Assembly: GCF_000026545.1 (NCBI RefSeq)
Contig: NC_011601.1
Length of the DNA stretch: 64,000 bases
DNA from: Escherichia coli O127:H6 str. E2348/69
Lineage (GTDB): Bacteria; Pseudomonadota; Gammaproteobacteria; Enterobacterales; Enterobacteriaceae
Strand: one strand, 5' to 3'
Shown: one piece after another, positions 39,496 to 42,909 of the stretch
Layout: each line of letters begins with the position of its first letter
Numbering within the stretch: the stretch's first letter is position 1
Position numbers and translations under genes: made by a program
The notes under the pieces: generated by a model
What the model was told of the DNA's origin: nothing
Database searches by the model: none
The model's input: the letters and a program-made list of their open reading frames with translations, nothing else

Positions 39496-40533
39496 ATGTT
39501 TTCCGCATTGCGCCACCGTACCGCTGCCCTGGCGCTCGGCGTATGCTTTATTCTCCCCGTACACGCCTCGTCACCTAAACCTGGCGATTTTGCTAATACC
39601 CAGGCACGACATATTGCTACTTTCTTTCCGGGACGCATGACCGGAACTCCTGCAGAAATGTTATCTGCCGATTATATTCGCCAACAGTTTCAGCAAATGG
39701 GTTATCGCAGTGATATTCGGACATTTAATAGTCGGTATATTTATACCGCCCGCGATAATCGCAAGAGCTGGCATAACGTGACGGGAAGTACGGTGATTGC
39801 CGCTCATGAAGGCAAAGCGCCGCAGCAGATCATCATTATGGCGCATCTGGATACTTACGCCCCGCTGAGCGATGCTGACGCCGATGCCAATCTCGGCGGG
39901 CTAACGTTACAAGGAATGGATGATAACGCCGCAGGTTTAGGTGTCATGCTGGAACTGGCTGAACGCCTGAAAAATACGCCTACCGAGTATGGTATTCGAT
40001 TTGTGGCGACCAGCGGCGAAGAGGAAGGAAAATTAGGCGCTGAGAATTTACTCAAGCGGATGAGTGACACCGAAAAGAAAAATACGCTGCTGGTGATTAA
40101 TCTCGATAACTTAATTGTTGGCGATAAGCTGTATTTCAACAGTGGCGTAAAAACACCTGAAGCAGTAAGGAAATTAACGCGCGACCGGGCGCTGGCAATT
40201 GCCCGCAGCCATGGAATTGCCGCCACCACAAATCCAGGTTTGAATAAAAACTATCCGAAAGGCACCGGGTGTTGTAATGACGCAGAAATATTCGACAAAG
40301 CCGGTATTGCTGTACTTTCGGTGGAAGCGACTAACTGGAATCTTGGCAATAAGGATGGTTATCAGCAACGCGCAAAAACAGCCGCATTCCCTGCAGGAAA
40401 TAGCTGGCATGACGTAAGACTGGATAATCAACAGCATATTGATAAGGCACTTCCTGGAAGAATAGAACGCCGCTGCCGTGATGTTATGCGGATAATGCTA
40501 CCGCTGGTGAAGGAGCTGGCGAAGGCATCTTAA
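39496..40533 (+). CDS. iap: Alkaline phosphatase isozyme conversion aminopeptidase Iap
   Basis: 345 aa, signal peptide and M28-family peptidase motifs. Confidence 0.9.
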   Translation: MFSALRHRTAALALGVCFILPVHASSPKPGDFANTQARHIATFFPGRMTGTPAEMLSADYIRQQFQQMGYRSDIRTFNSRYIYTARDNRKSWHNVTGSTVIAAHEGKAPQQIIIMAHLDTYAPLSDADADANLGGLTLQGMDDNAAGLGVMLELAERLKNTPTEYGIRFVATSGEEEGKLGAENLLKRMSDTEKKNTLLVINLDNLIVGDKLYFNSGVKTPEAVRKLTRDRALAIARSHGIAATTNPGLNKNYPKGTGCCNDAEIFDKAGIAVLSVEATNWNLGNKDGYQQRAKTAAFPAGNSWHDVRLDNQQHIDKALPGRIERRCRDVMRIMLPLVKELAKAS

Positions 40534-40632
40534 TGGGTTTGAAATGATTACTCCCTTGCCTGCAGGAAATCAATGCCACCAGAAACAGAGTATAAAAAAG
40601 GGTGCAGGAGACCAAACCATCACAATTCAGTA

Positions 40633-40651
40633 CGCGGGGTTTTACCCCGCG
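40633..40651 (-). terminator. Stem-loop (cgcgggg-tttta-ccccgcg) immediately 3' of the hok pseudogene
   Basis: 7-bp perfect stem read from the sequence, located just after the hok stop codon on the minus strand. Confidence 0.4.
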
Positions 40652-40657
40652 TGGTGG

Positions 40658-40809
40658 CTACTTCTTCGATTCGTAAGCGAGAACTGCCTTAAACTCCATA
40701 CCACGTTCTCTGATACTCAACTCACACAACGAGTCGCCTACCATCAACGTGAATCCCAGTACTGTACAACACAGTACGATGATTGCCACAAGGGCATATT
40801 TTGTCAGCA
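40658..40809 (-). pseudogene. hok: hok-family (HokE-like) type I toxin gene, inactivated by a 1-nt deletion
   Basis: Minus-strand translation [23 protein letters not shown] then a stop, followed out of frame by [26 protein letters not shown], which matches the Hok/Gef family (Hok[15 protein letters not shown]...LVGDSLCEF...[12 protein letters not shown], from memory). Restoring one G in 'atg(g)tagg' gives an intact 50-aa ORF. Confidence 0.7.
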
Positions 40810-40828
40810 TGTCTGTGTAAGTTCACAG

Positions 40829-41900
40829 AGATATTGCAATTGCCTCCGGATAAGTAAGGGGAGATTGCACTATGCAAATGCAGCATCTGATGGTTGGCTA
40901 TCCTAAGTACTACCAAACGGCCGATTATGCGTTGAGGCTTTCAGTGATGGCTGATATAGCAACAATGAGAATGAAGGCTCTGCACTTCTGGGATAAACAC
41001 GGTATTTCTGCAGCTTCTGAAGCCTTTGGCGTGTCCTGCCGCACGCTTTACTGGTGGCGTCAGTTACTGAACAAGGAAGGACCTGAGGGGCTAATCCCGC
41101 ACAGTAAGGCACCTCTGGTGCGACGAAAAAAACACTGGCATCCCGATGTGCTGAAAGAGATTCGACGCCTCAGGACAGAGCTGCCGAACCTCGGTAAAGA
41201 GCAGATTTTTGTTCGCCTGAAGCCCTGGTGCGAACAGCGCTATCTGGCCTGTCCGAGTGTTTCCACCATCGGCAGAATGATCGCTGCCGCACATGATAAA
41301 ATGCGGATGATACCTGTGCGTCTGGGATCGCGGGGGAAGGCACTGCTTGTCAAAAAGCGGTCTGCCAAACCCCGCAGGCCAAAGCACTACCGCCCGGTAA
41401 AGACAGGTGAGCTCATTGGGATGGACGCCATTGAGCTCAGAATGGGCGAACTGCGTCGCTATGTCATCACCATGATCGACGAATGCAGCAATTACGCGCT
41501 GGCGCTGGCTGTGCCGTCACTCAACAGTGATATCGTCAATCACTTCTTCAGCCGCGCAGCCCGGTTGTTCCCGGTCGGTATCAGCCAGATAATCACAGAT
41601 AACGGAAAAGAGTTCCTGGGAAACTTCGACAAAACGCTGCAGGAAGCCGCTATCAAACACCTCTGGACCTATCCCTACACGCCAAAAATGAACGCTATCT
41701 GTGAACGTTTTAACCGGACGTTAAGAGAGCAGTTTATTGAATTTAATGAGATTTTACTCTTTGAAGATCTGGCGCTATTTAACCAGAAGCTGGCGGAATA
41801 TCTGGTGCTGTATAACAGCAAAAGACCCCACAAGGCGCTCGCACTAATGACGCCCGTGGAATATATTTTAAAAGAGAATAAAAATTGCAATATGTGGTGG
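40829..41900 (+). mobile_element. Approximate extent of an IS481-family-like insertion sequence; boundaries tentative
   Basis: Single DDE (rve) transposase ORF. Candidate terminal inverted repeats 'atattgcaatt' at the left (about 40829) and its reverse complement within 'aaaaattgcaatatg' at about 41886-41900. No clean target-site duplication was found. Confidence 0.4.
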
Positions 41901-42146
41901 ACCCATACAATGTCTTGCCTCCTTGCAAAGAAGAGACTAACATCCGAATTGCTTAGGTTCGAACGTAGGCCTCAGGTTGATAGAAATATCGCCTGGGGCT
42001 TTTGTCCATCTGGAACCTCGCGAATGCTTAACGCCAGACAGCCTCAAGCACCCAACGCCATTCTATACCTGTTAATTTTCCCTGCGATGTTCACCTTTAA
42101 ATGCCGGAATGCTGCTCGCAAAATAAAAACGCCCCATCATTTCTGA
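40872..42146 (+). CDS. DDE-type (rve/integrase core) transposase with N-terminal HTH, IS481-family-like
   Basis: HTH (ISAASEAFGVSCRTLYWWRQ), DDE residues in GMDAIE / ITDNGKEF / ERFNRTLRE, and C-terminal KRPHKALALMTPVEY. The last ~80 codons of the 424-aa ORF may be read-through into flanking DNA. Confidence 0.7.
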   Translation: MQMQHLMVGYPKYYQTADYALRLSVMADIATMRMKALHFWDKHGISAASEAFGVSCRTLYWWRQLLNKEGPEGLIPHSKAPLVRRKKHWHPDVLKEIRRLRTELPNLGKEQIFVRLKPWCEQRYLACPSVSTIGRMIAAAHDKMRMIPVRLGSRGKALLVKKRSAKPRRPKHYRPVKTGELIGMDAIELRMGELRRYVITMIDECSNYALALAVPSLNSDIVNHFFSRAARLFPVGISQIITDNGKEFLGNFDKTLQEAAIKHLWTYPYTPKMNAICERFNRTLREQFIEFNEILLFEDLALFNQKLAEYLVLYNSKRPHKALALMTPVEYILKENKNCNMWWTHTMSCLLAKKRLTSELLRFERRPQVDRNIAWGFCPSGTSRMLNARQPQAPNAILYLLIFPAMFTFKCRNAARKIKTPHHF

Positions 42147-42174
42147 CAGAGGCGTTTAATTTATCCGGCAATAT

Positions 42175-42909
42175 TTACCCTTCGTGTAATCCACATTCCC
42201 TTTTTAAGCCAAAGAAACGCGTTTCTTCTTCCGCCATGCCGGGTTCCCATTTACGGGTTGTATGGGTATCGCCCACCGATAAATATCCTTCATCCCATAA
42301 TGGGTGATATTTCAGGCCATGTTTTTGCAGGTACTGATAAATAGTTCGGTTATCCCAGTCGATAATCGGCAGCACTTTAAATACGCCACGCTGAATTGCC
42401 AGCACCGGTAAATTGGCGCGACTGCCGGATTGTTCACGGCGCAGGCCAGCAAACCAGGTTTGCGCATTCAGTTCTTTCAGCGCCCGGTTCATCGGTTCGA
42501 CTTTGTTGATGTCATTGTACTTTTCAATGCCTTCAACGCCCTGCTCCCACAGTTTGCCGTAGCGTGCTTCCTGCCAGGCGGCGCTTTCGGTAGCACGATA
42601 CACTTTCAGGTTGAGCTTGAGTTTGTCCGTTAACTCGTCAATAAAGCGGTAGGTTTCCGGGAACAGATAGCCGGTATCGGTGAGGATCACTGGAATATCC
42701 GGGCGAATCTGATTCACCAGATGCAGACTCACCGCCGCCTGAATGCCAAAGCTGGAAGAAAGTACATATTCACCGGGCAGATTATCCAGCGCCCAGGCTA
42801 CGCGGCCTTCAGCGTCCAGTTTTTCCAGTTGGGCGTTAGTTTCCGCCAGCGCCAGAATCCGGTCTACCTTTGGCAGTTCGTTCAGGGCGTTTAGATCGAG
42901 TTTGGACAT
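42175..42909 (-). CDS. cysH: Phosphoadenosine phosphosulfate reductase (244 aa)
   Basis: Conserved [21 protein letters not shown] start; the longer six-frame ORF runs through a REP element and was rejected. Confidence 0.95.

Follow-up and report, generated by a model that had tools for sequence, protein, structure and literature searches.

Insertion sequences of the IS481 family are approximately 1-1.3 kb long and carry imperfect terminal inverted repeats that end 5'-TGT...ACA-3'. In several of them the transposase open reading frame (ORF) stays open through the right end, and the stop codon lies outside the element. This is the case with IS481 itself, with ISRme5, a stop-less IS481-family transposase whose copies measure 321-463 amino acids (aa) according to the insertion site (PMC4803752), and with ISLxc2/ISLxx4, where the stop lies in the duplicated target NCTAGN (PMC2516522). 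The targets of these elements are the palindromic NCTAGN or other hot spots. Here, we describe an element of this kind in a 64,000-nucleotide stretch of Escherichia coli O127:H6 str. E2348/69 (the window; NCBI RefSeq assembly GCF_000026545.1, contig NC_011601.1), where it is inserted in a hok/sok locus between iap and cysH. The best explanation of the locus as a whole, to which we give a probability of about 0.9, is an intact IS481-family element with a stop-less transposase frame, a protein tail that depends on the site, and insertion sites that share a promoter-like register. Unlike the described elements, it duplicates 5 bp of any sequence, and the recurrent bases of the target, a TTG at +6 to +8 and a -10-like hexamer at approximately +29 (counted from the first base beyond the right end), lie outside the duplication; its stop is a TGA taken from TTGA, whereas the users of NCTAGN take TAG from CTAG.

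The ORF concerned runs from 40872 to 42146 on the + strand and encodes 424 aa. Most E. coli genomes match just the two ends of the interval 40534-42175, and in strain ESBLEC_HM24 (locus L002), where iap, hok and cysH are adjacent, the empty site aligns to window positions 40534-40814 and 41910-42175 with a 6-nt overlap. This comparison, which the first-pass annotation of the stretch had suggested, supplied both the boundaries of the element and its ATGTC duplication. Ten further copies all start with TGTGTAAG and end with CCCATACA. The 5-bp duplications at independent loci include CAAAG, TCTCC, CTGTG, ATCAA and AACGC, and a 5-bp duplication was found in 17 independent site clusters. The right end can be fixed at 41909 because the empty site, the duplication and more than 100 other copies place it there.

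An alignment of the two ends gives imperfect inverted repeats, with 9 of 13 positions matching at the tips, a 1-nt insertion or deletion and a perfect 11-mer; the outer tips are TGT...ACA, the left repeat starting with TGTGTAAGTTCAC... and the reverse complement of the right repeat with TGTATGGGTCCAC... The first-pass annotation had recognized the 11-mer (40831-40841, ATATTGCAATT, against 41883-41893) and taken it for the tips of the element. The pairing is correct, but these bases form the inner part of the repeats; the true left end lies 15 nt before the start that had been given (40829) and the true right end 9 nt beyond the right repeat as proposed (about 41886-41900), and the correction is limited to the exact termini.

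With 424 codons open, one might suppose that the element is longer than 1,096 bp and that the 424-aa protein is native, its 78 C-terminal residues being functional. The first-pass annotation had put this forward beside read-through into the flank, and one homologue, P0004, does cover 100% of the query. The empty site, however, joins position 40813/4 straight to 41910, which we take as refuting a longer element, and in all other copies the sequence CCCATACA, at the equivalent of 41909, is followed by differing flanks. When 5.8 billion proteins were searched with the 424-aa query, nearly all full-length relatives among the matches listed covered about 82-84% of it, and the sole protein with 100% coverage among those matches, P0004, comes from the same iap-cysH site in another lineage, where the ORF is 478 aa long. 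It differs from the E2348/69 protein at 1 of 346 core residues versus 13 of 78 tail residues, so the tail is diverging like non-coding DNA. A family-profile search found no protein family match for the 78-residue tail, whose DNA overlaps the sok/hok leader RNA. Conservation of the full 424 aa among homologues had been named in advance as an argument against read-through; the coverage that was found favors read-through instead, and a longer element is barely conceivable.

As predicted from the frame, the 424-aa ORF is therefore a read-through into the flank, and its tail is an accident of the site that stands outside the protein family. The estimate of approximately 80 codons beyond the element made in the first-pass annotation agrees with the 346 codons inside and 78 outside, and the stop does fall within a terminator-like hairpin beside cysH, as it had stated; its read-through alternative is borne out by the empty site, the 5-bp duplication, the >100 copies, and a tail that lacks a family and varies in length. 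Codon 346 of the frame is ACA, the terminal bases of the right inverted repeat. No copy examined has a stop within the element, and the ORF accordingly measures 348, 357, 362, 363, 378, 424, 486 or 896 aa by site: because the element lacks a stop codon, translation ends in whatever DNA adjoins its right end. Proteins of the ISKpn28 group, similarly, range from 353 to 662 aa and carry Pfam domains of neighboring genes at their C-termini. Long tails may change the stability or activity of the transposase.

Annotation with the NCBI pipeline PGAP treats such copies unevenly. The E2348/69 copy is recorded as an integrase core domain-containing protein, a partial coding sequence ending at 41906 and described as 'incomplete, missing C-terminus', and other copies are likewise flagged as partial pseudogenes, as one would expect if the copy were a 3'-truncated pseudogene and its open frame a relic. 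We consider truncation very improbable given that the match to the IS481 model has already reached position 283 of 284 at residue 331, that both inverted repeats and the duplication are intact, and that the DNA is 100% identical to copies found at 11-37 per strain elsewhere. Identical copies with short tails, moreover, are named as a complete 'IS481 family transposase'. The 'missing C-terminus' flag is an artefact that annotation produces from a frame without a stop: where chance places a stop just past the element, an identical copy passes as complete. Stop-less copies are thus systematically annotated as partial pseudogenes missing their C-terminus, and 'full-length' transposases in the databases, such as the 357-aa ISKpn28 protein, include residues encoded by hok/sok DNA. 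In this protein (WP_013609528.1; P0014; L014 1559-2632), which PGAP names 'ISKpn28 family transposase', the last 11 residues, SPCLAASKRLS, come from the hok/sok flank, and copies with a differing flank are then annotated as partial pseudogenes.

The family assignment made in the first-pass annotation (IS481-like) can be kept. Pfam places HTH_32/HTH_28 at residues 40-136, rve at 179-271 and rve_3 at 261-328, and the NCBIfam IS481 model (NF033577) matches residues 33-331 with E = 1.4e-65 over model positions 2-283 of 284; since this match ends at residue 331, the recognizable transposase ends approximately 93 codons before the stop. The next-best family model is IS3, with 98 bits. The transposase is encoded by a single uninterrupted ORF, and the DDE triad, D185, D243 (in a DNG motif) and E278 (in ERFNRT), is invariant in alignment A1, which holds 24 sequences down to 43% identity. 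With the model, the triad, the size of 1,096 bp, the TGT...ACA tips and the short duplication all present, the element is, on its predicted features, an intact IS481-family insertion sequence, in agreement with the PGAP name of its identical copies. As for the missing stop, the first-pass remark that some members of the family have none inside the element holds for ISRme5 (PMC4803752) and ISLxc2/ISLxx4 (PMC2516522).

Among 5,426 complete E. coli genomes, 1,419 carry the element, at 1,927 places in all, with 100%-identical copies numbering up to 37 per chromosome record and occupying up to 38 places per genome; strain IAL7255 has 37 copies. The occurrence of identical copies 11-37 times in other strains implies recent transposition, and by this measure the element is common and active. 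The sources searched, which did not extend to ISfinder, gave no name for it. The nearest named relative is ISKpn28, an IS481-family element from Klebsiella pneumoniae, which is also 1,096 bp long in L014, is identical over the last 30 nt of the right end and near-identical at the left end, and likewise generates a 5-bp duplication and lacks an in-element stop. Its position in the hok/sok locus of L014 (duplication TCTCC, then TTGCCT) is that of the E. coli element at hokD. The two differ by having 75.4% DNA identity and 78-80% protein identity. ISfinder treats copies as one element above 95% protein or 90% DNA identity, and the E. coli element is therefore separate from ISKpn28 and belongs to the same subgroup.

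Some copies are variants or remnants. At galF-yegH in strain 744 (L003 3005-4100), a locus occupied in many genomes, a 93%-identical variant is fused in frame to yegH in an 896-aa ORF; galF adjoins yegH in this strain, which suggests that the colanic-acid cluster is absent or rearranged. On ColV-type plasmids (L011 1501-2585), a frameshifted variant of 1,085 bp, approximately 93% identical, occupies one position between iss and iroB in many IncF virulence plasmids and is probably an old, decayed insertion. Isolated end fragments lie beside IS100, IS3 and IS1 in other E. coli genomes (L015 1201-1243, L016 1201-1261 and L017 1201-1236). Such short end matches (left, 43-61 nt; right, 36 nt) were considered as a miniature inverted-repeat transposable element or as a conserved target and were rejected as either, being remnants truncated by IS100, IS3 or IS1. 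In strain IAL7254 (L006, yijO/ppc), ppc and yijO are both truncated at the element; at this locus and the metagenome loci L109, L114, L125 and L128, either the hok DNA on the left is paired with an unrelated right flank or the 5-bp repeats do not match. Such copies indicate IS-mediated deletions, inversions or recombination between copies.

In E2348/69, the insertion separates the hok Shine-Dalgarno sequence from its start codon and lies 3 nt before the ATG. The hok locus is intact in the empty site, where GGAGGcaagacATG is contiguous, and the reconstructed site reads ...TTGCAAGGAGGCAAGACATGCTGACA... on the hok strand. On the transposase strand, a predicted -35 box begins directly after the duplication, ATGTC TTGCCT-N17-TAACAT; this would make a good sigma-70 promoter for the antisense RNA Sok, with a predicted start near 41950, and the same layout recurs at about 9 other hok locus types. 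A fold of 41949-42008 (-23.3 kcal/mol, z = -3.3) is followed by UUUUGU. Because the element sits between the Shine-Dalgarno sequence and the ATG, the 78 added codons are antisense to the hok leader, passing through the sok promoter, the sok gene and the hok promoter region to the stop in the cysH terminator. At most hok loci, a TAG closes the frame after 11 codons (357 aa); the E2348/69 allele has another codon in place of the TAG, which gives an extension of 78 codons. The hok gene, which matches the NCBIfam HokA/Hok models with E = 2.6e-14, under the curated cut-offs, would be silenced by its separation from its translation signals, while sok would keep its promoter.

The same arrangement is found at other toxin genes. 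The element has its left end 3-13 nt upstream of the annotated toxin start, always in one orientation, at hok (E2348/69), hokD, hokA, a prophage hok and ldr (the toxin sites with the element or ISKpn28 are L005, L007, L009, L010, L014 and window 40658-41943), and ISKpn28 occupies the identical position of a plasmid hok. Insertions at the -35 box of sok or rdl would cut the toxin from its leader and keep the antisense-RNA promoter. For ldr, the predicted promoter is TTGTAA-N17-TATTCT, and the 5' end of the RdlD RNA given by Rfam (L007 position 2137) falls 7 nt after the predicted -10 box and 41 nt after the end of the element, an exact match.

To look at sites in general, flanks were collected with a 25-nt right-end scan of metagenome and viral contigs; a 30-nt right-end scan of species-representative genomes gave one hit, in a contaminated metagenome-assembled genome, and was useless for site statistics. 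At most distinct sites, the triplet directly after the 5-bp duplication is TTG, which at hok loci is the -35 of the sok promoter. Pooling gave 55 site clusters, from which copies demonstrably without a duplication were excluded, and a hexamer was counted as -10-like if it matched TATAAT at four or more of its six positions, among them the A at position 2 and the T at position 6, and lay 16-18 nt after the -35 hexamer. Of the 55 clusters, 33 have TTG at +6 to +8, as compared with 0-2 clusters for any other register. The -10 criterion is satisfied in 27 of the 55 clusters; when the register is shifted by 3 nt or more, it is satisfied in 2-5 of 55. The information content of the sites peaks at +6, +7, +8, +29, +30 and +34. 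Sites away from toxins include TTGACT-N17-TATCGT before cvi, TTGGCT-N17-TACCAT before sthA, TTGCTG-N17-TATACT and TTGCCA-N17-GATAAT. The mirror test on the left flank was near empty (TTG in 0 of 17, -10-like in 2 of 17), which fixes the orientation. As a sequence pattern, the placement of the right end 5 bp upstream of sigma-70-type -35/-10 pairs in one orientation is strong. A recurrent non-hok right flank in several prophage-like contigs (L073, L060, L044, L189 and L197-L199) consists of GAG(C/T)A followed directly by TTGAAAC...-N17-TAAATT and then GGTGTGGTGAATCCCCC; it looks like the promoter of a small gene or RNA.

Since the hypothesis arose from the first data set, in which 9 of 17 non-hok TTG sites had a -10-like hexamer against a background of 3-7%, it was tested on eight sites seen only in viral contigs, and 6 of the 8 have the -10 in register. 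Nine distant relatives (34-46% protein identity) were also compared. A -35-like hexamer stands at +6 in each of the nine (three TTGACA, two TTGACG, and one each of TTGAAC, TTGAGT, TTGCCA and TGGACT), and a -10 follows at 16-18 nt in seven, four of these being a perfect TATAAT, as in CACTC followed by TTGACA-N17-TATAAT and CCCTA followed by TTGACA-N16-TATAAT. Wherever their left end could be read, a 5-bp duplication was confirmed, and genes of the same orientation are found 100-280 nt downstream.

The register also accounts for where translation stops. The codons after the tip at such sites are NNN NNT TGN, and a hexamer beginning TTGA (as in the consensus TTGACA) therefore places an in-frame TGA two codons after the tip, giving the modal 348-aa protein; TTGC or TTGT gives a Cys codon and read-through, as does the sok -35 TTGCCT here. 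The relatives at 41-56% identity, one from Acidithiobacillus caldus among them, all carry C(N/Q)xWWTHT before a tail that varies and most often consists of exactly two residues, and the C..WWTHT motif is kept in relatives down to 41% identity. Among 78 distinct tails, 21 consist of two residues and a stop, and another 17 carry Cys as their third residue; together these make 38 of 78 (49%) versus approximately 8% expected, as the bases NNN NNT TG(A/Y) would predict.

The number of toxin loci raises the question of whether the element homes to type I toxin-antitoxin loci (hok/sok, ldr/rdl), with all other sites as noise. Of the first eight sites, chosen regardless of annotation, four precede a hok or ldr start codon by 3-13 nt (a fifth hok site among the first sites was picked for its Hok annotation), about 9 of the 55 clusters are hok-type, ISKpn28 sits at the same hok position, and its transposase co-localizes with FlmC in plasmids (PMC12248084). 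Homing would nevertheless leave 46 non-hok clusters to be explained, 24 of them with TTG at +6 and 23 with a -10 in register. The distant relatives in Acidithiobacillus and other bacteria, which have no adjoining hok at the sites examined, sit before TTGACA-N16/17-TATAAT and precede ordinary genes (thioredoxin, xseB, radical SAM). At the hok and ldr loci, too, the hexamer is that of the antisense-RNA promoter. We think it unlikely that homing is the rule.

A preference for N5-TTG(A) alone, the promoter context arising through survival of insertions that spare genes and promoters, is a slightly better candidate, though still a doubtful one. No other signal in the site matrix comes close to TTG in strength, and natural copies have already been filtered by selection; ISKpn28 is reportedly present, going by a paper's title alone, in isolates whose mgrB is disrupted by an insertion. 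The -10 box is harder to obtain in this way. In 1.46 Mb of fetched DNA outside long ORFs, a -10-like hexamer follows TTG, TTGA and TTGAC in just 7.3%, 8.3% and 13.4% of cases, whereas it was observed in approximately 49% of clusters (27/55) and in 7 of 9 distant relatives, and insertions at neutral intergenic TTG sites that lack a -10, which ought to persist just as readily, are rare. The promoter appears to be the unit because a TTG(A) preference with selection cannot turn a background of 7-13% into 49-78%. A further idea, that the target mimics the end of the element as in the inverted-repeat targeting of IS911 and IS30, was prompted by the likeness of the interior of the left repeat, TTGCAATTGCCTCC, to the hok target, TTGCCTCCTTGCAA. 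It was rejected as a general rule: beyond the -35 and -10 hexamers, the non-hok and distant sites have nothing in common, and the -10 box goes unexplained.

We therefore lean towards a target rule in which a widespread clade of the IS481 family integrates 5 bp upstream of sigma-70 -35 boxes, in the orientation of the promoter, with a stop supplied by the target and with recognition of the promoter as a whole. ISKpn28 and the E. coli element would belong to this clade, together with relatives from Acidithiobacillus and other bacteria, and a C-terminal ...C(N/Q)xWWTHT, specified by the right inverted repeat, would mark it. It could dispense with a stop codon of its own because the consensus -35 (T-TGA-CA) would give an in-frame TGA two codons past the tip. 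The transpososome would recognize both the -35 and the -10, most likely through promoter-bound RNA polymerase or sigma, or through the shape of the promoter DNA. In enterobacteria, the strong constitutive promoters of antisense RNAs (sok, rdl) would be hot spots, which would silence the toxins and explain the association with type I toxins.

Several observations weigh against the explanation of the locus as a whole. The 346-aa core alone scores 221.6 bits with NF033577, 2.4 bits short of the curated cut-off of 224. TTG at +6 to +8 is missing from approximately 40% of clusters, and although some of these are rearranged copies without a duplication, others look like true non-promoter insertions (e.g., L051, with TTTTCT). 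The p-values are post hoc, the viral and distant-relative sets being the only independent tests. Promoter identity is a prediction, with a comparison to an RNA 5' end for rdl only, and the assignment of the sok promoter follows the known hok/sok layout. Finally, a scan and inspection by hand of the 58 nt upstream of the ATG found no convincing internal promoter for the transposase; for a promoter at a circle junction (right repeat, 5 bp, left repeat), the scan was empty and hand inspection unconvincing.

The features of the locus are collected in Table 1, in which window positions of the Rfam hit equal the L001 coordinate + 37533. The genes iap and cysH lie 1.6 kb apart (window 39496-42909), with hok/sok and the insertion sequence between them. 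In E. coli K-12, this interval presumably holds the CRISPR-1 array and the type I-E cas operon, which are thus not at this position here.

Table 1. Coordinates of the element, its insertion site and the neighboring genes in the window
Feature	Position	Strand	Basis or remark
iap	39496-40533	+	RefSeq
hok toxin gene, 50 aa, cut from Shine-Dalgarno, mok and leader by the insertion	40658-40810	-	PGAP Hok/Gef family protein; NCBIfam
Left 5-bp target-site duplication ATGTC	40809-40813	unstranded	Overlaps hok start codon (CAT on + strand, 40808-40810)
Complete IS481-family insertion sequence, 1,096 bp	40814-41909	+	Empty site L002 and identical ends of copies at other loci
Left inverted repeat (IRL) TGTGTAAGTTCACAGAGATATTGCAATT	40814-40841	+	Alignment of the two ends
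Pseudogene (integrase core domain-containing protein)	40872-41906	+	RefSeq
In-element part of transposase ORF, 346 codons, no stop	40872-41909	+	HTH domains and DDE (rve) core, D185, D243, E278
Right inverted repeat (IRR) ...AATTGCAATATGTGGTGGACCCATACA	41883-41909	+	Last 15 nt encode conserved C-terminal WWTHT
hok mRNA leader/sok region (Rfam RF01794)	41904-42053	-	104.6 bits versus gathering score 59
Right 5-bp target-site duplication ATGTC	41910-41914	unstranded	
Read-through ORF extension, 78 codons and TGA, from flanking DNA	41910-42146	+	No family match; length varies by site
Predicted sok promoter: -35 TTGCCT 41915-41920, 17-nt spacer, -10 TAACAT 41938-41943	41915-41943	+	Read from sequence
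hok Shine-Dalgarno GGAGG	41918-41922	-	Overlaps predicted sok promoter
Predicted Sok antisense RNA within ORF extension, terminator hairpin and U-run	41950-42004	+	Fold; RF01794 overlap
cysH intrinsic terminator hairpin, includes ORF TGA 42144-42146	42132-42151	-	Just downstream of cysH
cysH	42175-42909	-	RefSeq

Other insertions beside hok genes are on record. IS150 and IS186 are said to have inserted in hok loci of E. coli K-12, as Pedersen and Gerdes reportedly described in 1999, and there, too, a chromosomal hok would be inactivated by an insertion sequence beside the toxin frame. Those insertions reportedly lie downstream of hok, involve unrelated IS families and share no register, whereas here the position is fixed relative to the sok promoter. 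A parallel in behavior only is offered by the yeast retrotransposons Ty3, Ty1 and Tf1, whose DDE integrases act at or upstream of transcription start regions: an rve-type DDE enzyme would insert a fixed short distance upstream of a promoter or transcription start and spare coding DNA. The yeast elements differ in being eukaryotic, RNA-mediated and tethered by TFIIIB or Sap1, and homology is limited to the catalytic fold.

A missing stop codon is already known for the IS481 family, and the finding as first stated is an ordinary one, a target-supplied stop having been published for ISRme5 and ISLxc2; the target rule may be new. The open literature yielded no description of insertion upstream of -35 boxes by any IS481-family element, ISfinder and the subscription literature being outside the search. 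A preprint surveying Hok proteins mentions nearby IS elements solely as signs of horizontal transfer, and a large study of IS-gene neighborhoods does not report a target rule.

If the proposed target rule is true, its consequences would reach beyond this locus. To our knowledge, the element would be the first bacterial insertion sequence to choose promoters in a register exact to one base; no other is known to us, and there was none in the literature searched. Its behavior would resemble the safe-haven strategy of yeast Ty3 and Tf1, and it would explain both how the reading frame manages without a stop and why hok and ldr toxins are recurrently silenced. Natural insertions would serve as markers of sigma-70 promoters, and the element would offer a compact system for studying how a transpososome reads a promoter.

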